A DNA stretch of 64,000 nt from NCBI GenBank assembly GCA_963726195.1, contig CAVSBO010000003.1, forward strand, positions 224,001 through 288,000, given 5' to 3'. The notes below the pieces were generated by a model. The model was given only the letters and a program-made list of their open reading frames with translations. It was not told the DNA's origin and did not search any database. This document shows, one piece after another, positions 37,635-47,134 of this stretch (positions within the stretch are counted from its first letter, which is position 1; the number at the start of each line of letters is the position of its first letter). Origin of the DNA: Candidatus Thorarchaeota archaeon. Lineage in GTDB: Archaea; Asgardarchaeota; Thorarchaeia; Thorarchaeales; Thorarchaeaceae. Made by a program: the position numbers and the translations under genes.

Positions 37635-37718
37635 ACTACCTGTTGTCCTGCAGCATTCTGACCTATCAAAGTGAATATATGTCTGAGCGCCATTAAGCTA
37701 CCGACAGGTTGGATACCC

Positions 37719-38372
37719 TTGGTAGTCGAGATAGATGAGCCAACAAAACTGCAGTTGCAGCAGATACTGAGCGGCCTTGACCACGAAGTCACTCTTCACT
37801 TGTTCACAGATGGCGCAGAGTGCTTGTTCTGCAATGACACAAAGGACCTAGTGAACAAGATATCTGCGCTTTCAGAGAAGATCAAGGTTGTGCCGCATGA
37901 GGGCCCTCCGAAGAAAGGAAAGAACCCCTTGGGTGTTCAACGAACTCCCGCGATTGTCATGCATGGCGTAGAGGAGTACAAAGTGAAGTACTTCGGTATT
38001 CCCGTTGGCCACGAATTCGGTGCTTTCGTTACGGGCATTGTTGACGTTTCAACCCGTGCAATCGCGCTTGCATCAGACATTGCGGAGGACATCAAGGCCA
38101 TTGCGAAGCCAGTCAATGTGAAAGTGTTTACGACCCCGCAGTGCCCGTATTGTCCTCAGATGGTGAGACTCACTTGGCAGGCTGCGATTCTCAATCCCCT
38201 CATAGAAGGGGAGGTTTACGAGTCCCTCGAGTTCCAAGATTTGGTAAAACGATACGAAGTCTTCGGAACTCCCAAGACTGTCATCAATGACAAAATCATG
38301 TTGGAGGGATTGGTCCAGCCTGGAGTGTTCGTCGATAAACTGTACGAAGCGGCCGGTGGGGGCGGCGCCTAA
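37719..38372 (+). CDS. Protein-disulfide oxidoreductase (PDO, two thioredoxin folds)
   Basis: CLFC and CPYC motifs, GIPVGHEF. Confidence 0.9.
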   Translation: MVVEIDEPTKLQLQQILSGLDHEVTLHLFTDGAECLFCNDTKDLVNKISALSEKIKVVPHEGPPKKGKNPLGVQRTPAIVMHGVEEYKVKYFGIPVGHEFGAFVTGIVDVSTRAIALASDIAEDIKAIAKPVNVKVFTTPQCPYCPQMVRLTWQAAILNPLIEGEVYESLEFQDLVKRYEVFGTPKTVINDKIMLEGLVQPGVFVDKLYEAAGGGGA

Positions 38373-38465
38373 CTGCAGAGCTCTGGTAGATGTTCACCGA
38401 CTGCAAATCCACAACTCTTCTGCACGCTTCTGCCTCGGACTCTCGAAAAAGTCGCTACTCCACAA

Positions 38466-39404
38466 TCACTCAGACTGTTGACATGTGAAGACGAACTCAT
38501 GCTCGTTCACATAACGGTATGCTTGGTATGCGGCGTGAACGCCCTCTGCGACTCCCGTTATGGCTTGTTTGAACTCAGTATCAGCAACGTCACCTGCTGC
38601 GAAGACGCCAGGCACGTTCGTACGACTTGAACGGTCAATGATGATTTCGCCGTTCTGGTTCAGCGCGACGCCAAGCTTCTTTGCCAAGTGCGAAACTGGG
38701 ATTCCACCAATCGATATGAACAGACCCTGAACGCTTAGATTGCTGCTTCCATCGAACGCCTTGTCCAGCTTGACAGACTTTACGCTTTGATCTCCTTGAA
38801 CTGCGGTCACGTTTGTGCCGGTGATAACCTGTATCTTCGGCTCCTTCTCGACACGAGCACCATTAATCGGCTCGGGCCTTATTCTCTCGCCGCGATATAT
38901 CATGTAGACTTTCTTGCATTGGCGCGCAAGCAAGAGGGCCTCCTTTGCTGCGCTGTCGCTTCCACCTACAACGGCCACGACCTTGTCCTTGAACAGTGGA
39001 GCATCACACAACGCACAATATGAGATTCCTTTGTTTCTGAATTCATTGTGGCCCGGGACCTCAAGCTCTCTTTCCTTCATACCTGTCGCAATCAGGACTG
39101 ACTTCGCCAAGAACGTCTTGCTCCCCGTTACCACATACAGCAGCCCTTCCTTGCTTCTGAAGAGATCCTCGACCTTCACTGATTCCGTGTCTACTGGATA
39201 ACCTAGTGCATGTGTCTTCAGTTTCTCGGCGAGTTCCTTGCCGGTAAGCTGGGCGAAGCCGGGATAGTTCGCCACGTCGTCAGTTAGTGTGATCTTGCCT
39301 CCCTCGATTTCACCGATCACAATGCATGACATGCTCAGCCGCGCTGCGTACATCGCAGCCGCATACCCTGTAACACCTGCACCGATTACAGCGAAGTCGT
39401 ACAC
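38466..39404 (-). CDS. trxB: Thioredoxin reductase
   Basis: GAGVTG, NYPG, GISYCALCD, GGSDSA, FAAGD, QAITG. Confidence 0.9.
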   Translation of the reverse strand: MYDFAVIGAGVTGYAAAMYAARLSMSCIVIGEIEGGKITLTDDVANYPGFAQLTGKELAEKLKTHALGYPVDTESVKVEDLFRSKEGLLYVVTGSKTFLAKSVLIATGMKERELEVPGHNEFRNKGISYCALCDAPLFKDKVVAVVGGSDSAAKEALLLARQCKKVYMIYRGERIRPEPINGARVEKEPKIQVITGTNVTAVQGDQSVKSVKLDKAFDGSSNLSVQGLFISIGGIPVSHLAKKLGVALNQNGEIIIDRSSRTNVPGVFAAGDVADTEFKQAITGVAEGVHAAYQAYRYVNEHEFVFTCQQSE

Positions 39405-39406
39405 AG

Positions 39407-39652
39407 CTACTTTCCTCCAAGCTTTCTTTCCAATCTTCGTTGAACACGAGAGTCAAAACCGATGAAGACCTCGCCATCGATTAGTGCAACTGGCACAGCC
39501 CTCTGTTTGCTAACTGCAATAAGCTCGGCAAGAGAATCAGGATTTGTTAGGACGCACTTCTCTTCAAGGGTGACGCCCTTGTCAGAAAGAAACTTCTTCA
39601 TTCTCTTTGAATGAGGACACTGCGGCGCGGTATAGATGACTCCTTTGACCAT
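39407..39652 (-). CDS. Glutaredoxin/NrdH-like protein (CPHS, monothiol)
   Basis: YTAPQCPHS, AVPV..IDG..IGFD. Confidence 0.85.
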   Translation of the reverse strand: MVKGVIYTAPQCPHSKRMKKFLSDKGVTLEEKCVLTNPDSLAELIAVSKQRAVPVALIDGEVFIGFDSRVQRRLERKLGGK

Positions 39653-39825
39653 GGTGGCACGCTCCATGTGAGGAACAACAATCAGAATTGCGGATGATGG
39701 CTCAGAAAGATGGAGCATGCACTGTCAGATATATCTTATGAAAAAGACTAGTAGCGCGGCCGATAGGTAAACATCTTAAGACCGAGCACTATTGGCAAGT
39801 ACAGCTAACCTCCGGAGGACCAGAG

Positions 39826-40302
39826 ATGGACAAAACACAGACACTTGCCTTCATTACAAAGGCAATCGAGATGGAGAACAAGATTCTAGCCGTCGTTGAA
39901 CAGAACACGGCAAAGCTAGGCCACGTCTTTGTGAAGGACCTGCTGCTTGCAATCGCACAGGATTCCAAGAAACATGCTGCACTCTTGAAATCACTCCAAG
40001 AAGCGGTTAAGGGCCCGACGCCTTTCATAACACAGCGAGAGCGTGATTCCATCGCCAAGGGCATCGAGGAACACATCAAACTTGAAGCAAAGGCTGTGGA
40101 AACCTATGGAGAACTCGCTGACAAGAGCGACAGTCAGCAGGTGAAAATCATCGCCCAGTTAATCAGAGAGGACGAACTCAGGCACCATGCTATGCTCAAG
40201 GAACTACACAAGACAGTCATTGAACCTGAGACCCTGACGGAAGACATTATCTACGAACTCATATGGAAAGACGCACCTTGGCATGGAACGCCAGGTGGCT
40301 AA
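39826..40302 (+). CDS. Ferritin/rubrerythrin-like di-iron protein
   Basis: Two E...D/ExxH helix pairs (DSKKH, DELRH). Confidence 0.8.
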   Translation: MDKTQTLAFITKAIEMENKILAVVEQNTAKLGHVFVKDLLLAIAQDSKKHAALLKSLQEAVKGPTPFITQRERDSIAKGIEEHIKLEAKAVETYGELADKSDSQQVKIIAQLIREDELRHHAMLKELHKTVIEPETLTEDIIYELIWKDAPWHGTPGG

Positions 40303-40480: not shown

Positions 40481-41029
40481 TTATTTAGTTCCACAAGCGT
40501 TGTCAATCATCTCTCTGAACATGAGATCAAGCTGTTGAATTCCGACACCGGTCTTGGCTGATATGAGAGCTGACTGAGTCCCGAACTTCTTGCAGAAATC
40601 GTCCATCTCCTTCTCAACTTCCTGCAGAGAACCGGGTTTCAGGTCAATCTTGTTTCCGACAAGAATGAACCGTTTGCCGTCTCCCTTCGCAAAATCGAAT
40701 GAACCATTTTTCTCCACTGTTGGTACCCAGTAGTTGTATAGACTCTCTAGACTGGACATCCGTGTGACATCAAAGAAGAACAGACCAATCTTGGCGCCCT
40801 TGATCATGGTCTTCAGAGTCTCAATGAAACGTTCTTGGCCGCCGAAGTCCCAGATGCTGAGAACACATTCGCCTCCAGCAGGTGTCGTGATCTTCATAGT
40901 ATCGAACGAGGCACCTATCGTCGTCTTCAGCAACATGGGGTCAGGGAAGGTTCCCCTTGTCCACCTTGACGTGAATGAGGTCTTGCCGACTTCTGTATCT
41001 CCGAGAACGACGACCTTGATGATGCCCAT
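40481..41029 (-). CDS. Rab-like small GTPase
   Basis: G1 GDTEVGKT, G2 TTIGASF, G3 WDFGGQERF, G4 NKID, G5 SAK; true start ATG 41029. Confidence 0.93.
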   Translation of the reverse strand: MGIIKVVVLGDTEVGKTSFTSRWTRGTFPDPMLLKTTIGASFDTMKITTPAGGECVLSIWDFGGQERFIETLKTMIKGAKIGLFFFDVTRMSSLESLYNYWVPTVEKNGSFDFAKGDGKRFILVGNKIDLKPGSLQEVEKEMDDFCKKFGTQSALISAKTGVGIQQLDLMFREMIDNACGTK

Positions 41030-41064
41030 AGCCGATTCCACGCTCGCCCGGCAACCCGATTCTA

Positions 41065-42423
41065 TTATGCTTTTCTGAATATTGCGAATCCTCTTGGACT
41101 GCTGGCTATCAACATCAGCCCTGCTCCAATCATGAGAGGCACAAGCAGCAGCAACGGAATGCGGTCCGCAAACATGGCAACTATGCCGATTGCCAGAGAT
41201 GCGAACATGAATGACTCGAATCTGGCTCCAGCTCTTCCGGAACCAACCCGACGCAGTTGAAGAGCTACAACTGAAAGGCCAACGAAGCCCAGAAGAATCA
41301 GAAGCAGGACTGGAACATAGAGAGGATTCAAGTTGTACCGGCCATCCTGAACAAAGGGATGACCTAGAGTCGCCAGGATTATTCCAAACCCTAGGATGAT
41401 GTCTCTTGAAGCGCTCCGAATCCGCTCTGAAACATTCGCTGAGACTGCTGCCATTAGGAATGTGGATACTCCGAAGACCCCAAATATCCAATCAAGGTAG
41501 AGAATGGCCGGGTCCCAGTTGTCAAATCCTATAATGCCCGAGAAGGCGATGGCAAAGTTGTTGGAGTGAGTAATCGCTAACAGAGCAACGAACACGAGCG
41601 TGTAGCTTATGTAGGTCGGCGTTTTTGCTCTGGTTGCTTGGGCCTGGTCTACGAAGAATTCCATAGGCAAAACCGTGCAACTCCCTGCGAATGCTGCCAC
41701 GAGAGCAAAAGCCCAGATTTCGACGTTGCCTCCTAGGTAGGCTGGCACTGCCAAGCTCACCCCAACAGTGACGGCTAGCAACACGATGGAAAGCGATATG
41801 ATTCTTCTCCACGGCTTCAGAATTGAACCGAGAATCGCCGCCACGAGAACGGCCGGTGCAGCCACCAACATGAAGAACTGTGGTGACAGTCCGGGTATGT
41901 TAATCTCAAAGGCAAGCTCATTCATCAGGCCTAGTATGGTGGCGGCAAGGATTGACACTGAGAAAGCAGAAGGTGAGATTTTGATGAGGTACAGTCCGGC
42001 CATCGTCGTGCAGAGAAAGAAGCCAAGGGGCACAACAACTGTCGTTAACGGCTGGACCACTGGGCCAAATACAAGGAAGACGTACACTTCGTCCACAGCC
42101 GCAGCAGCTATGACGAAGGATATGATTGCTGCGAGCAGTCTGAATCTTTTCTCCGAAGAAACTATGAGACTAAGTTGAGCCATGAGCAGGGATCCAAGCA
42201 GAAGGATTTCCCATATCGTTGTAAGTGACCCTTCGATTATGACTTGAAGCTCGAGAAGACCCAACGACACGCCGGCTACGAGAACCATGATGAGAGCTCG
42301 CGCGGTCTGCGGACTGACCTTACGGTACGTGCTCCTAAGTCGGAGAGCATACACGCAGGCGGCCAAGAATACCTCTAGGCTCGACAGCATTACACCAATA
42401 AAGAAAGACAACGCGAAATCCAT
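41065..42423 (-). CDS. Polytopic membrane protein (~15 TM), unknown function
   Basis: About 15 hydrophobic helices with short basic loops; GGAGG SD. Confidence 0.8.
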   Translation of the reverse strand: MDFALSFFIGVMLSSLEVFLAACVYALRLRSTYRKVSPQTARALIMVLVAGVSLGLLELQVIIEGSLTTIWEILLLGSLLMAQLSLIVSSEKRFRLLAAIISFVIAAAAVDEVYVFLVFGPVVQPLTTVVVPLGFFLCTTMAGLYLIKISPSAFSVSILAATILGLMNELAFEINIPGLSPQFFMLVAAPAVLVAAILGSILKPWRRIISLSIVLLAVTVGVSLAVPAYLGGNVEIWAFALVAAFAGSCTVLPMEFFVDQAQATRAKTPTYISYTLVFVALLAITHSNNFAIAFSGIIGFDNWDPAILYLDWIFGVFGVSTFLMAAVSANVSERIRSASRDIILGFGIILATLGHPFVQDGRYNLNPLYVPVLLLILLGFVGLSVVALQLRRVGSGRAGARFESFMFASLAIGIVAMFADRIPLLLLVPLMIGAGLMLIASSPRGFAIFRKA

Positions 42424-42441
42424 CGACTCTGTTCCTCCATT

Positions 42442-42819
42442 CTATCTCCAAAGGTCACCGATTTCCTTCCCTCTCTTTTGCACGGTCCTTTCAATCTTGG
42501 ATTTCAGCTGTTCACCTGAAGCATCCGGACTAGCGAGCACGGCCTTGAGAGCATCACCGGTCTCAGCCTCTGTGTCACCCTCGCAGATGACGACATGCCC
42601 ATCCAAGCCACAGTAACCGATGACACCTTTGTCGGATTTCATGAACCTTGGAATCCTAATTCCTGTGTCTCGCGTGCCAGACCTCTCCAGTGCAGCCGAC
42701 ACGAGTTGGACAATTCCGGTGAGCAGAGCAATTCTCTCTTCTTCTACCTGCGTATGGGGATAGAGAACCGTAGAGGTCAGGTCGGCCAGTTTCACCTTGG
42801 CGACAAGTCTTACTACCGT
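42442..42819 (-). CDS. Small longin/roadblock-like alpha-beta protein
   Basis: Pattern strand-strand-helix(LLTGIVQLV)-strand x3-helix-helix; start is either GTG 42795 or in-frame ACG 42819. Confidence 0.55.
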   Translation of the reverse strand, partial: TVVRLVAKVKLADLTSTVLYPHTQVEEERIALLTGIVQLVSAALERSGTRDTGIRIPRFMKSDKGVIGYCGLDGHVVICEGDTEAETGDALKAVLASPDASGEQLKSKIERTVQKRGKEIGDLWR

Positions 42820-43109
42820 TTTCCTTCACCCCCGAACGCATCACGGACCCAGTCTATCTCGCGACGTCCACCCTTTCTCGGCTTTCCAGGCTTGCCTGGT
42901 TCAATCGCCACCACTACATCTCGGACTCCGAGCGTTCCGTCCTTGATGTACAGAGTGACGAGAATCTCATGCTCATTGTCGCATTTGGTCAGAAGAGTTG
43001 GCGACCGTCCTTTCTCCACGATACTCTTCTTTATGGACTCCACTTCTTCATCCTTCAGGCTTAACGAAGCACTGGAGGAACACTCCGGGCATGAGAACTT
43101 GAGCAGCAT
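42813..43109 (-). CDS. Small Zn-binding protein (CPxC...CxxxH...VR)
   Basis: CPEC, CDNEH, GVRD; GAGGT SD. Confidence 0.75.
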   Translation of the reverse strand: MLLKFSCPECSSSASLSLKDEEVESIKKSIVEKGRSPTLLTKCDNEHEILVTLYIKDGTLGVRDVVVAIEPGKPGKPRKGGRREIDWVRDAFGGEGKR

Positions 43110-43481: not shown

Positions 43482-45389
43482 ATGACCGTCGAAGATGTCA
43501 TGAGAACGGATGGCGGCAGGGCACTGATGCTTGCAAACGAAGCCGTCGTCAGAGGAGCTCTGGAAGCTGACGTGAAGGTTGTATCATGCTATCCCGGTAG
43601 TCCGACCTCAGAAATACTGGATACATTCAGTGATGTGCTTCAGCACTTCGGCGATTACAGGATGCACATAGCAGCCAACGAGAAGGTTGCTCTGGAAACC
43701 GTCGCTGGAGCATCGATGGCGGGATTGAGATCTCTCACTTCCATGAAAAGCGTCGGCATGAATGTCGCTAGTGATGCACTCTTCAGTATTGCATACACGG
43801 GAGTGAACGCAGGGTGCGTTTGCGTGGTCGCTGATGATCCGCACGCTCACTCGTCCCAGTCCGAACAAGACGGCCGCTACTTTGCGGAGCCATCCTACAC
43901 ACCAATGATTGAGCCATCCACCGCGCAGGAAGCCTACGACATGACCAAATGGGCTTTCGAGGTCTCGAGCAAGTACAAGACCGTCGTCATAGTAAGAACC
44001 ACAACGAGAGTTAACCATCAACGAGGAATGGTCAAGCTCGGTGACCTGAGGCGCACCCCTTTCAAGAAGAACAAATGGTCGGAGGTCAAGGGTCAGTACT
44101 TCACGGTTGGTGCTGTTGCTAGAGCACTCAAGGCGAAACTCCTGACGAAGATTGAGAACATGAAACCGGAGTTCGAAGACTCCAGGTTCAATGTCGTCGA
44201 GGAGGGACAAGGCAAGATCGGAATCATCACGGGAGGGGTCTCATATCTTCATACCAAGGAGGCCATGAAGAACCTCGGTGTCAGCCTGCCTATTCTGAAA
44301 ATCGGAACCGTCTATCCGCTCCCTGAGAAAAAGATTGCCGCTTTTCTCAAGCGTCTCGACACAGTAATTGTCGTTGAAGAACTCACTCCGTATTTTGAAC
44401 TTCGAGTGACTGCTATTGCCAAGGACGCGAACGCGAAAGTACGGATTATTGGAAAGCGCAGTGGTGACTTCAGTGAGATGCTTGAGTACAACGTCCCCAT
44501 TGTTGAAAAGGTTCTTGCGAAAACTCTCAAGAAGCCACTGAGCACTGACTACGACGCTGTTGTGAAACGTGCTGATCAACTGAAGTCGATTCTGCCTGAG
44601 CGTAATCCCATCTTCTGCCCCGGGTGTCCTCATAGAGGAACACTTTGGGCTTTTAGGCAGGCACTGTCTCGGGTTCGGATTCGTGAGAAGATTGTCTTCA
44701 ATAATGACATTGGCTGTTACTCAATGGCTTTCCTTGCTCCCAACAACTTCAGTGATTCCATGCTGTCGATGGGTTCGTCCGTGGGTGTTTCAGCAGGCAT
44801 GGAGATGGCTCTTGAGGACAAGGTCGTAGCGATGGTGGGTGATTCTACTCTCTACCACGCGGCTCTGCCCGGGATTGTCAACTTGATCCACCACAGCGCG
44901 AATGTCACGCTATTCGTGCTCGACAACAGCGTCACTGCAATGACCGGGCAGCAGTACAATCCCAATAGCCCTCTCAATGCTGGAGAACAGCCGGCTAAGA
45001 AGATTAACATGGAGAAGATGTTTGAAGCACTTGGAGCAGACAGCGTCACTGTAATCGATCCCTATCACACTCGTGATTGCGTGAAGCCTATCATAGATGC
45101 TCTTCAGAGCAAGGGCTTCTCGGTCATCATTTCGCGTCGCGAGTGTGCGCTTTATGGAGACCGCCTTCGCAAGGAACGGAACGAACCCATTATTCCAAGT
45201 GTGACTGACAAGAACATATGCCGCAGTATTTACAACTGCGTCAAGGAGTTTTACTGCCCGGCCATCACCGTCGACGAATCAGACTCCAAGATGCGGATTC
45301 AGACCGATCTGTGTGACGGTTGTCTGGAGTGTAGACAGGTTTGCCCAACCGGAGCTCCGGCCCACATCGACGGTACAACAACGAGGTGA
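43482..45389 (+). CDS. iorA: Indolepyruvate:ferredoxin oxidoreductase alpha subunit
   Basis: YPGSPTSE, NEKVALE, SSQSEQD, CPGCPH, DIGCY, GDST, TAMTG, C-terminal ferredoxin motif. Confidence 0.95.
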   Translation: MTVEDVMRTDGGRALMLANEAVVRGALEADVKVVSCYPGSPTSEILDTFSDVLQHFGDYRMHIAANEKVALETVAGASMAGLRSLTSMKSVGMNVASDALFSIAYTGVNAGCVCVVADDPHAHSSQSEQDGRYFAEPSYTPMIEPSTAQEAYDMTKWAFEVSSKYKTVVIVRTTTRVNHQRGMVKLGDLRRTPFKKNKWSEVKGQYFTVGAVARALKAKLLTKIENMKPEFEDSRFNVVEEGQGKIGIITGGVSYLHTKEAMKNLGVSLPILKIGTVYPLPEKKIAAFLKRLDTVIVVEELTPYFELRVTAIAKDANAKVRIIGKRSGDFSEMLEYNVPIVEKVLAKTLKKPLSTDYDAVVKRADQLKSILPERNPIFCPGCPHRGTLWAFRQALSRVRIREKIVFNNDIGCYSMAFLAPNNFSDSMLSMGSSVGVSAGMEMALEDKVVAMVGDSTLYHAALPGIVNLIHHSANVTLFVLDNSVTAMTGQQYNPNSPLNAGEQPAKKINMEKMFEALGADSVTVIDPYHTRDCVKPIIDALQSKGFSVIISRRECALYGDRLRKERNEPIIPSVTDKNICRSIYNCVKEFYCPAITVDESDSKMRIQTDLCDGCLECRQVCPTGAPAHIDGTTTR

Positions 45390-46021
45390 TGAGGATGAAG
45401 GATACGTACAACATCATGTTTTGCGGCGTCGGGGGGCAGGGGCTCATGCTCCTCTCGTCAATCCTAGGAAAAGCGGCAGTCGATTCAGGCATGGAAGCGA
45501 TGACAGGCGAACAACACGGCCTCTCACAACGAAGCGGTTCCATCTATGTGCACTTCAGAGTTGGCAAGCCCATCTCACCCCTGATACCCTATGGCAAGGC
45601 CGACCTCGTGATTGCAATGGAGGCCACAGAAGCTTTGAGATACATAGAGTACCTGAAGGATGGCGGCGTCGTAATAATGAGCAACCGCATCATGCCTCCA
45701 CCGTCTGAGACTGAAGAGGTGGCGCTCGACAAGGAGAAGAAGAAGAAGTACATCAAGCTTCAGGACATTGTAGAGAAGATAAACACGGTCACAAACAAGG
45801 TGGTTGCTCTTGACTCACTTCAACTAGCCACAAAGGCTGGAAACCCGAGGGCTGAGAACTCTGTGCTCGTCGGAGCGGCTTGTGCATGTCCGGACTTTCC
45901 CATACCTGTTGAGGCTGTTAGGAAAGCCCTACTCGCGCTGGTTCCTAAGAAAACCGCAGAGGCAAACTCTGCTGCATTCGATCTCGGGCGCGAGGCAGGC
46001 GGCACCTGCTTGGAGATATGA
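45389..46021 (+). CDS. iorB: Indolepyruvate:ferredoxin oxidoreductase beta subunit
   Basis: GVGGQG, HGLSQRSGS, EALR; start overlaps the iorA stop. Confidence 0.93.
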   Translation: MRMKDTYNIMFCGVGGQGLMLLSSILGKAAVDSGMEAMTGEQHGLSQRSGSIYVHFRVGKPISPLIPYGKADLVIAMEATEALRYIEYLKDGGVVIMSNRIMPPPSETEEVALDKEKKKKYIKLQDIVEKINTVTNKVVALDSLQLATKAGNPRAENSVLVGAACACPDFPIPVEAVRKALLALVPKKTAEANSAAFDLGREAGGTCLEI

Positions 46022-46120
46022 AGCGAAACTAAACATGTATTCGTACCTTCATGTTCCGTCGTAGGTCAGCTGGATAGAGATATTAAAGAGACTTCACACG
46101 AGTCACGTTGAGGGAATACA

Positions 46121-47134
46121 TTGAGCGCCTCGAAGCTCTATGATACGATTGTGATAGGCGGCGGTCCGGCCGGTTGCTCGGCGGCACTTCATCTTGCATA
46201 CCACAAGCGATCAGTGTTAGTTCTCGACAGGGGAACCAGTCCAATGTGTTTTCATACGAACTCGATAATGAACTATGCCGCAGGGCCCACATATTTCGAG
46301 GGACGAACCCTATTGCGCCAGCTTCAGGGGCTCGCCGAGTCAGCGGGTGCGAGTTTCAAGGCCGCTGATGTTGTCGAGATTAGCAGGAGATACCCTGATT
46401 TCAAACTCAGAACCGAGAAGAGTTATCGAACAAACGACGAATCCGACTATCACTGCAAGACGCTCATCTTCGCGACAGGCACCGCACGAAAACATCCATT
46501 GGTCGATGGCAAATGGAGACTCTGGCTGCCAGTCGCCGGTGTCGGGAACGCTGCATTCTACTGTCCGGACTGTGAGGCGCCCTTGTGCAAGGACAAGGAT
46601 GTACTTGTTGTGAATGCTGGTTCTGTCGGTAGCGCCCTTCATGTTGCTAACGCAGTTAGTAGGTTTACCAAGAAAGTCAGAATCCTAATGACGGAAGACG
46701 CCTTTGTCCCCTATGCTGAACAGGATTTGTCCAAGCTCGAAGCCTCACCGTTCGAGTGGACCCATGGCAAGATAAAGTCAGTAGAGTTTCCGAGACCTGG
46801 TAGGGTTCAATCACTGACGCTTACGTCAGGAGAAAAAACCAAAGCAGAGGTCTTCTTTGTTGCTCATGTCGCAAGAGCGAGATCCGAGCTTGCCCAGAGC
46901 ATCGGAATCCAGGTAGACGAGAGGGGAAACATCATTACTGACCATAGAGGAAAGACCAATATCGAAGGCATCTGGGCAGCTGGCGACGTGAGACCAATCA
47001 CGCAGCAAGTCGCGATGGCAGTTGGTACAGGCAATTATGCAGCACTGATGATTGATCAGTTCCTAGGCAATGATTATGAAAGCGAGCAAACGTTTGACCA
47101 CCCAGAATCTCGCGGTCTACTGCACCCGGACTAG
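46121..47134 (+). CDS. TrxR-like FAD-dependent disulfide oxidoreductase
   Basis: GGGPAG, ATG, YCPDCE, WAAGD, QVAMAVGTG. Confidence 0.85.
   Translation: MSASKLYDTIVIGGGPAGCSAALHLAYHKRSVLVLDRGTSPMCFHTNSIMNYAAGPTYFEGRTLLRQLQGLAESAGASFKAADVVEISRRYPDFKLRTEKSYRTNDESDYHCKTLIFATGTARKHPLVDGKWRLWLPVAGVGNAAFYCPDCEAPLCKDKDVLVVNAGSVGSALHVANAVSRFTKKVRILMTEDAFVPYAEQDLSKLEASPFEWTHGKIKSVEFPRPGRVQSLTLTSGEKTKAEVFFVAHVARARSELAQSIGIQVDERGNIITDHRGKTNIEGIWAAGDVRPITQQVAMAVGTGNYAALMIDQFLGNDYESEQTFDHPESRGLLHPD

Follow-up and report, generated by a model that had tools for sequence, protein, structure and literature searches.

A four-gene operon on the minus strand of a 64,000-nucleotide stretch of a Candidatus Thorarchaeota genome (assembly GCA_963726195.1, contig CAVSBO010000003.1, positions 224,001 to 288,000; hereafter the window, in whose coordinates all positions are given) encodes a zinc-ribbon protein, a predicted longin-fold protein, a polytopic membrane protein with two predicted seven-transmembrane (7TM) bundles, and a Rab-like GTPase. 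We propose, with a probability of roughly 0.55, that these four genes encode a single membrane-attached small-GTPase switch. The operon itself is real, strongly conserved and lineage-restricted, and the functional model placed upon it is plausible. With dozens of small GTPases and numerous longin and roadblock proteins encoded by Asgard archaea, the questions arise which of these regulators serves which GTPase, and how GTPases devoid of a lipid anchor reach membranes. The operon names one such cognate set of GTPase, longin protein, zinc protein and membrane partner. Its genes and principal features are as follows:

42813..43109, minus strand: zinc-ribbon protein, operon gene 1 (98 aa; open reading frame with invariant C7, C10, C43 and H47)
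42954..43097, minus strand: Brz-like zinc beta-ribbon domain, residues 5-52 (Pfam match range and invariant metal ligands)
42828..42860, minus strand: C-terminal motif EIDWVRDAFGG, residues 84-94 (conserved across full modules)
42442..42795, minus strand: predicted longin-fold protein with a GTG start (117 aa; AlphaFold2 model and structural matches)
41065..42423, minus strand: membrane protein with 15 predicted helices, N-terminus outside and C-terminus inside (452 aa; AlphaFold2 model)
41803..42423, minus strand: first predicted 7TM bundle, residues 1-207 (structural alignment to 7TM folds of the G-protein-coupled receptor, GPCR, type)
41731..41802, minus strand: predicted linker helix TM8, residues 208-231, following the inner-loop motif PWR (model and conservation)
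41068..41730, minus strand: second predicted 7TM bundle, residues 232-452, the better conserved half (structural alignment and conservation)
40481..41029, minus strand: Rab-like small GTPase with predicted catalytic Gln65 and without a lipidation tail (182 aa; Pfam Ras and motifs)

In the open reading frame list, all four genes run in one direction, in the order zinc-ribbon protein, longin-fold protein, membrane protein and GTPase, and at the chosen starts they are separated by 17, 18 and 35 nucleotides without any overlap. The initial annotation of this DNA had correctly described the genes as co-oriented with gaps of 18 and 35 nucleotides, but its overlap at the remaining junction is in fact the gap of 17 nucleotides. 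The start of the GTPase is placed at the ATG at 41029, and all its orthologues begin with MGIIK or MAIxK; a 336-residue frame at 40481-41491, which extends the GTPase frame upstream to a TTG at 41491 and overlaps the 3' part of the membrane gene, was discarded as an artefact of open reading frame calling. The ATG of the membrane gene is preceded by GGAGG, and a scan for promoters and terminators of the bacterial type found nothing above the shuffled expectation.

Evidence for the module as a unit comes from its conservation. The order zinc protein, longin protein, one or two membrane genes, and GTPase is kept in all 16 related genomes compared, which span at least 13 genera; the synteny that had been proposed as a check on the module is hence borne out, and this recurrence, being far beyond chance, confirms that the operon is real. 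The cassette also remains intact at two loci with different flanking genes (L025 and L020; G012 and G018), and is tandemly duplicated as a whole in three further genomes (G010, G016 and G011; L016, L024 and L014). In all four proteins, the second G010 cassette has its nearest relative in the cassette of another genome, G008, rather than in its own genome-mate, and the distances of the membrane protein and the longin protein show the strongest correlation (rho 0.75, a descriptive value for related genomes). In a GTDB-based sample of 301 Asgard genomes drawn from the phylum, profiles of the longin and membrane proteins match the identical set of 38 genomes, all belonging to one GTDB family, and at every place examined the longin gene immediately precedes a membrane gene. 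By family, the profiles match 37 of the 76 genomes of this family and none of the 224 genomes from 29 other families. Within this sample, the module is accordingly confined to a single Thorarchaeota family and is not general to Asgard archaea. The nearest database homologues bear names that agree with a Thorarchaeota origin of the window, a few entries being labelled otherwise, such as 'Lokiarchaeota'. One apparent distant homologue in another family (G028, E 6e-4) lost its match when profiles were used, and none of the module genes is present at that site.

A natural variant shows how the module comes apart. In three genomes of one genus (G227, G248 and G170; 87-90% complete), the same locus, lying between IorAB and a 172-residue gene that occupies the place of a rubrerythrin-like gene, holds only the zinc protein and the GTPase, and matches to the longin and membrane proteins are found nowhere in these genomes; a fourth genome of the same genus (G296) retains the full module. 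The GTPase of this two-gene form is intact. Its zinc protein, on the other hand, ends in KKKARKRK and lacks the motif EIDWVxxAFGG, which in all zinc proteins of full modules follows a variable basic linker. The variant thus splits the module into a unit of longin and membrane proteins and a unit of zinc protein and GTPase, and because the motif is lost precisely where the longin and membrane genes are lost, it emerges as a candidate link between the two units. The persistence of the zinc protein and GTPase on their own in three genomes also means that the module is not strictly self-contained, as had been supposed at the outset. We speculate that the polybasic KKKARKRK tail (L040-L042) could bind acidic lipids or nucleic acid, replacing the lost membrane unit.

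For the membrane protein, hydropathy predicts 15 helices, the N-terminus lying outside and the C-terminus inside; this topology obeys the positive-inside rule, with about 23 of the 26 lysine and arginine residues falling in predicted inner loops. An AlphaFold2 model built with 27 family members is confident (predicted local distance difference test, pLDDT, 90.6; predicted template modelling score 0.88) and indicates a 7+1+7 architecture, in which helix 8 bridges the two bundles, which are therefore parallel. Approximately 15 helices in two units of about seven, joined to basic inner loops, had already been read from the sequence, and the model upholds this reading. The first bundle aligns with GPCR-type 7TM folds at Z 11-14.6 over about 195-205 residues (root-mean-square deviation, rmsd, 3.5-4.0), and the second with the 7TM folds of adhesion and other GPCRs at Z 10.6-14.4; taken together, both bundles align at Z 10.6-14.6 over about 195-210 residues at rmsd 3.5-5, with ADGRF1 matching each half. 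All of the top 50 rows returned by the structural aligner VIA are 7TM folds, including GPCRs, designed GPCR-like folds and one seven-helix transporter subunit. This predicted GPCR likeness holds at the level of the fold only: no Pfam or NCBIfam family and no GPCR-class sequence homology was detected for the protein, Foldseek with the model gave nothing at E<=0.001, a profile search of 1.84 billion representatives recovered only 59 clusters, all of the same type of about 450 residues or fragments of it, and the ESM Atlas yielded only its own Thorarchaeota cluster and unnamed clusters. Two chains of microbial rhodopsins occur among the weak Foldseek rows, but this identity was rejected, as neither seventh helix of the protein bears a mid-membrane lysine. 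A further candidate, a defence system, was set aside, with none of the four proteins matching PADLOC.

An internal duplication of the membrane protein is suggested only by the similarity of its two predicted folds; it has no sequence support, because an hhalign comparison of the N-terminal and C-terminal halves gave a weak and out-of-register match (residues 15-96 to 373-448, probability 10-18%). The most conserved positions are PWR at 204-206, F257/Q260/T264, P269, G394/A398/F402/F405 and P443, and the top-conserved positions are concentrated in the cytoplasmic half, with 16 there and 5 on the outer side (Fisher p=0.012). Many relatives carry two copies of the membrane gene inside the cassette (L015, L018, L019, L021, L022, L024 and L026-L028), the paralogues being 25-35% identical to the window protein. 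This doubling hints at a heterodimer in those genomes, whereas modules with one copy, like that of the window, might form a homodimer or act as a monomer.

The GTPase is readily recognized, matching Pfam Ras (PF00071) with 93.1 bits against a cut-off of 21.6. The motifs GDxExGKTS, TT(I/V)G, WDFGGQxRF, NKxD and SA(K/R) are invariant over 19 orthologues, and the window protein has them as GDTEVGKTS, T37, WDFGGQ, NKID and SAK, with G1 to G5 intact. Given the invariance of the P-loop, the switch I threonine and the remaining motifs, the protein is predicted to bind and hydrolyse GTP. Its best PDB matches are Rab28, Ypt7, Thor-Rab, Rab21 and Ypt31, and by these closest relatives, rather than by phylogeny, it is classed as Rab-like, in keeping with the initial annotation. 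A Rab-type lipid anchor is predicted to be missing, because 18 orthologues end at 178-189 residues, straight after the last helix, without a conserved cysteine, unlike the hypervariable Rab tail with its prenylated cysteines; C179 of the window protein is replaced by serine in its closest relative. The same genome (G000) contains at least 11 other small-GTPase loci on contigs C3, C5 and C7, whose products are 28-33% identical to the module GTPase. Orthologues from other genera, which adjoin the module, are 53-82% identical to it; since same-genome paralogues do not exceed 33%, the module possesses a dedicated GTPase orthologue group.

The 117-residue protein has no Pfam match at E<=1, including none to Robl_LC7 (MglB), and no NCBIfam match, and a profile of 80 sequences found no match in the PDB at E<=10. 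The AlphaFold2 model, built from 11 orthologues, is moderate (pLDDT 71) and comprises a helix at 19-39, three strands within 50-73 and two helices spanning 76-116; the N-terminal strand is poorly defined and an N-terminal hairpin is not seen in the model. A longin fold, for comparison, has two strands and a helix followed by three strands and a pair of helices. The pattern inferred earlier from the sequence (strand-strand-helix-strand-strand-strand-helix) is close to the model but not identical with it, the modelled order being helix, three strands and two helices. Foldseek with this model returned nothing significant, its weak rows including Sec22b, synbindin, sigma subunits of adaptor protein (AP) complexes, VAMP7 and BLOC-3. 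An all-against-all structural aligner, however, recovered longin or roadblock domains in about 45 of its top 50 rows, with Z up to 8.5, which supports the longin/roadblock-type fold originally suggested for the protein. The top row is the DENND1A longin domain (Z 8.5 over 104 residues), followed among others by Gse1, Sec22, Nyv1, CPLANE, synbindin, TRAPP, FLCN/FNIP2, Mon1-Ccz1 and Asgard longin and roadblock structures. Chains of the signal recognition particle (SRP) receptor (6frk, 1nrj) are also among the fold matches, and many come from complexes of GTPases with guanine nucleotide exchange factors (GEFs) or GTPase-activating proteins (GAPs), such as DENND1A-Rab35, Mon1-Ccz1, FLCN and Ragulator. 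ESM Atlas leads point to a Roadblock/LAMTOR2-like cluster and a Fuz_longin_1 cluster (score 0.89). Since the Z values lie within the range that the aligner terms common, the fold assignment rests on the consistency of the list together with the ESM Atlas leads. Longin chains align from residue 1 to about 110-117 (Z 6-8.5) and roadblock chains only to about 91, and the predicted order of elements fits the longin fold better than the roadblock fold, in which a helix, two strands and a further helix precede three strands. Our reading is hence that the protein is probably of the longin type within the longin/roadblock superfamily, its N-terminal hairpin being reduced. Its first helix (ERIALLTGIVQLVSAAL) and the C-terminal KEIGDLWR are almost invariant.

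In the zinc protein, C7, C10, C43, H47 and a GRSP(T) motif are invariant in 16 orthologues. The Pfam family Zn_ribbon_Brz (PF23454) matches the N-terminal 50 residues of 15 of these 16 at E<=0.01, with a best value of 6.3e-7; the window protein scores 23.0 bits, below the cut-off of 27.9. Additional Brz-like zinc-ribbon paralogues are encoded away from the module in genomes of the family, as frames of 87-108 residues that match profile positions 5-86 at E 1e-6 to 1e-7 (for example G170:C48:32527-32751, G148:C1:95600-95836 and G010:C21:153083-153298).

The operon of the window is embedded in a redox and oxidoreductase neighbourhood (37671-40302 and 43482-47134), which comprises genes for a thioredoxin-fold protein, a thioredoxin-reductase-like protein, a glutaredoxin, an IorA/IorB-like 2-oxoacid:ferredoxin oxidoreductase and a second pyridine-nucleotide disulphide oxidoreductase, along with a rubrerythrin-like gene convergent with the GTPase gene. 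This neighbourhood is syntenic in most related genomes and is missing at L025 and L020, on account of which it is probably not part of the module. The sequencing runs listed as containing this DNA are all DNA runs, from peat, wetland and freshwater sediment, with no RNA run among them.

In the switch that we propose, the double-7TM protein would serve as a membrane platform, and possibly as a sensor, with a conserved cytoplasmic face. The longin protein would dock on the inner face of this platform and control the nucleotide state of the GTPase as a GEF or GAP, a role proposed by analogy because longin and roadblock platforms elsewhere act in this manner. The zinc protein would pair with the GTPase, either as another regulator besides the longin protein or as an effector, and the EIDWVxxAFGG motif of the zinc protein would tie this pair to the pair of longin and membrane proteins. 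Being without a lipid anchor, the GTPase would reach the membrane only via its partners. Each of the protein contacts is inferred, as are the signalling direction, the action as GEF or GAP and the output of the switch. A bolder version, which we hold to be doubtful, is that the double-7TM protein is a true receptor whose cytoplasmic face loads the Rab-like GTPase through a longin exchange factor in response to a membrane or extracellular cue; it would then represent an archaeal pathway from a seven-helix receptor to a G protein, assembled from parts later used in eukaryotic Rab and Rag signalling.

Several observations weigh against a common switch. The model of the longin protein reaches only moderate confidence (pLDDT 71), with Z values of 6-8.5 that fall in the aligner's common range, and the protein has no sequence match to longin or roadblock families; the GPCR-like Z values of 11-14.6, too, occur among unrelated helical bundles. 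Conserved positions are modestly enriched at the inner face, and basic inner loops are commonly conserved in membrane proteins generally. The counts of co-occurrence are not independent because the compared genomes are related, and the two-gene form is probably a single evolutionary event in one genus and hence a lead rather than a statistic. Finally, the zinc ribbon resembles that of the transcription regulator Brz, so that the zinc protein may act on DNA, outside any complex. This last point can be elaborated into an alternative in which the zinc protein, like Brz, regulates transcription, either of the operon or of genes elsewhere, acting as the output of the switch or as an autoregulator instead of as a member of the complex. 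Brz itself is a small zinc-finger protein that regulates bop transcription in Halobacterium, where its gene directly precedes the 7TM gene bop (PMC2253796). This, along with the PF23454 matches in 15 of 16 orthologues, the basic linker, the KKKARKRK end of the two-gene form, and the persistence of the zinc protein and GTPase without the membrane pair, speaks for such a role. Yet the window protein falls under the Pfam cut-off (23 versus 27.9 bits), and the C-terminal motif disappears exactly where the longin and membrane genes do, which suggests that the motif contacts their products; we regard such a transcriptional role as unlikely.

Another explanation takes the membrane protein for a transporter or an enzyme, with no sensing receptor involved; the GTPase, longin and zinc proteins would then only regulate, target or assemble it, by analogy with the longin-type SRX domain and SRbeta at the SRP receptor. 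The protein is nearly all membrane-embedded, with very short loops and no ligand-binding ectodomain, it has conserved polar residues inside its helices (for example H286 and Q260), and chains of the SRP receptor are among the fold matches of the longin protein, all of which would suit this explanation. It appears improbable when set against the absence of any transporter or enzyme family matching the membrane protein by sequence, which also speaks against its being a known stand-alone transporter, the low probability and template modelling scores of 0.12-0.25 of the transporter rows in Foldseek, and the top 50 VIA rows, which are all 7TM folds with just one transporter subunit among them. The four genes might also have been kept together merely by shared descent and co-regulation within one family, without forming a complex; indeed, the wider redox neighbourhood (thioredoxin-fold, thioredoxin reductase, glutaredoxin, rubrerythrin-like and IorAB genes) is likewise syntenic, indicating that general synteny is high in the family. 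This is very hard to reconcile, however, with the cohesion of the four genes where the flanks differ (L025, L020), the duplication of whole cassettes (L016, L024, L014), the co-divergence of all four proteins, and the identical distribution of the longin and membrane genes. A membrane-attached switch formed by the four products hence remains our preferred reading. The set is small enough for expression and reconstitution and allows the switch to be tested jointly with the proteins that are likely to regulate it and its likely partner in the membrane, and the natural two-gene variant suggests how its parts connect. If its parts bind as proposed, it would make the first membrane-coupled small-GTPase system to be defined in an Asgard archaeon.

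A literature search found no published description of this four-gene module, and its nearest known architecture is that of the conservons, the four-gene G protein systems of actinobacteria typified by the CvnA-D and Mfp operons (PMC13343842, PMC13621833, PMC11343762, PMC4316618). Conservons consist of the sensor histidine kinase CvnA, the roadblock GAP CvnB, the small DUF742 GEF CvnC and the MglA-like/Ras-like GTPase CvnD. Like the module, they thus combine in a four-gene operon a membrane input protein, a regulator of the roadblock/longin superfamily, a small second regulator and a GTPase of the Ras superfamily, and their functional division between sensory genes upstream and CvnC-CvnD downstream mirrors the split of the module into the membrane-longin and zinc protein-GTPase units. 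The differences are nevertheless extensive: the membrane protein of the module has a predicted double 7TM bundle and lacks a histidine-kinase domain, its regulator is apparently of the longin type without a Pfam roadblock match, its small protein is a zinc ribbon instead of DUF742, its GTPase is Rab-like instead of MglA-like, and its host is an Asgard archaeon. A Pfam scan of the four module proteins detected no kinase, Robl_LC7 or DUF742 domain, and none of them is homologous by sequence to its conservon counterpart beyond the superfamily level. The module is therefore an analogue of the conservons and not a member of them.

Eukaryotic longin/roadblock platforms include Mon1-Ccz1-Ypt7, DENND1-Rab35, FLCN-FNIP, and Ragulator-Rag with the membrane proteins SLC38A9 or LYCHOS. 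These systems, which fill the top fold matches of the module's longin protein, likewise join a longin-fold protein to a Rab-like GTPase, or link a polytopic membrane protein to a longin/roadblock-GTPase unit. They differ in that the module has a single small longin gene without DENN or other extensions and a GTPase without a prenylation tail, and neither SLC38A9 nor LYCHOS has detectable homology to the module membrane protein (LYCHOS rows at E 0.12-0.5, rmsd 15-18). Here too the module is not a member, and its likeness both to these platforms and to the conservons is one of logic only.

Among prokaryotic systems, MglA-MglB and an Asgard operon described by Liu et al. also place a small GTPase gene beside a gene of the roadblock/longin superfamily. 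The latter authors reported ESCRT operons as well as operons of LAMTOR1-like, Rab-like GTPase and DENN genes, these last being present in most Asgard archaea (preprint 10.1101/2020.10.19.343400), in contrast to the module, which is found in one GTDB family only; neither MglA-MglB nor this operon has a 7TM partner or a zinc-ribbon protein. Thor-Rab (PDB 7EZB; PMC10933270), a Rab-like GTPase of Thorarchaeota, matches the module GTPase at E 1.3e-15, but it is a different paralogue that scores below Rab28 and Ypt7. According to Tran et al. 2024, MK-D1 GTPases do not, in general, share operons with roadblock or longin genes, so that gene arrangement is seldom of help and they are hard to pair (PMC10933270); in the module, by contrast, the GTPase and its presumed longin partner are explicitly paired in the genome. 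The theme of a prokaryotic small GTPase with its regulator is already known, and it is the double-7TM partner that is unprecedented; the proposed switch, if true, would join a 7TM fold with a switch of the Ras superfamily outside the eukaryotes.

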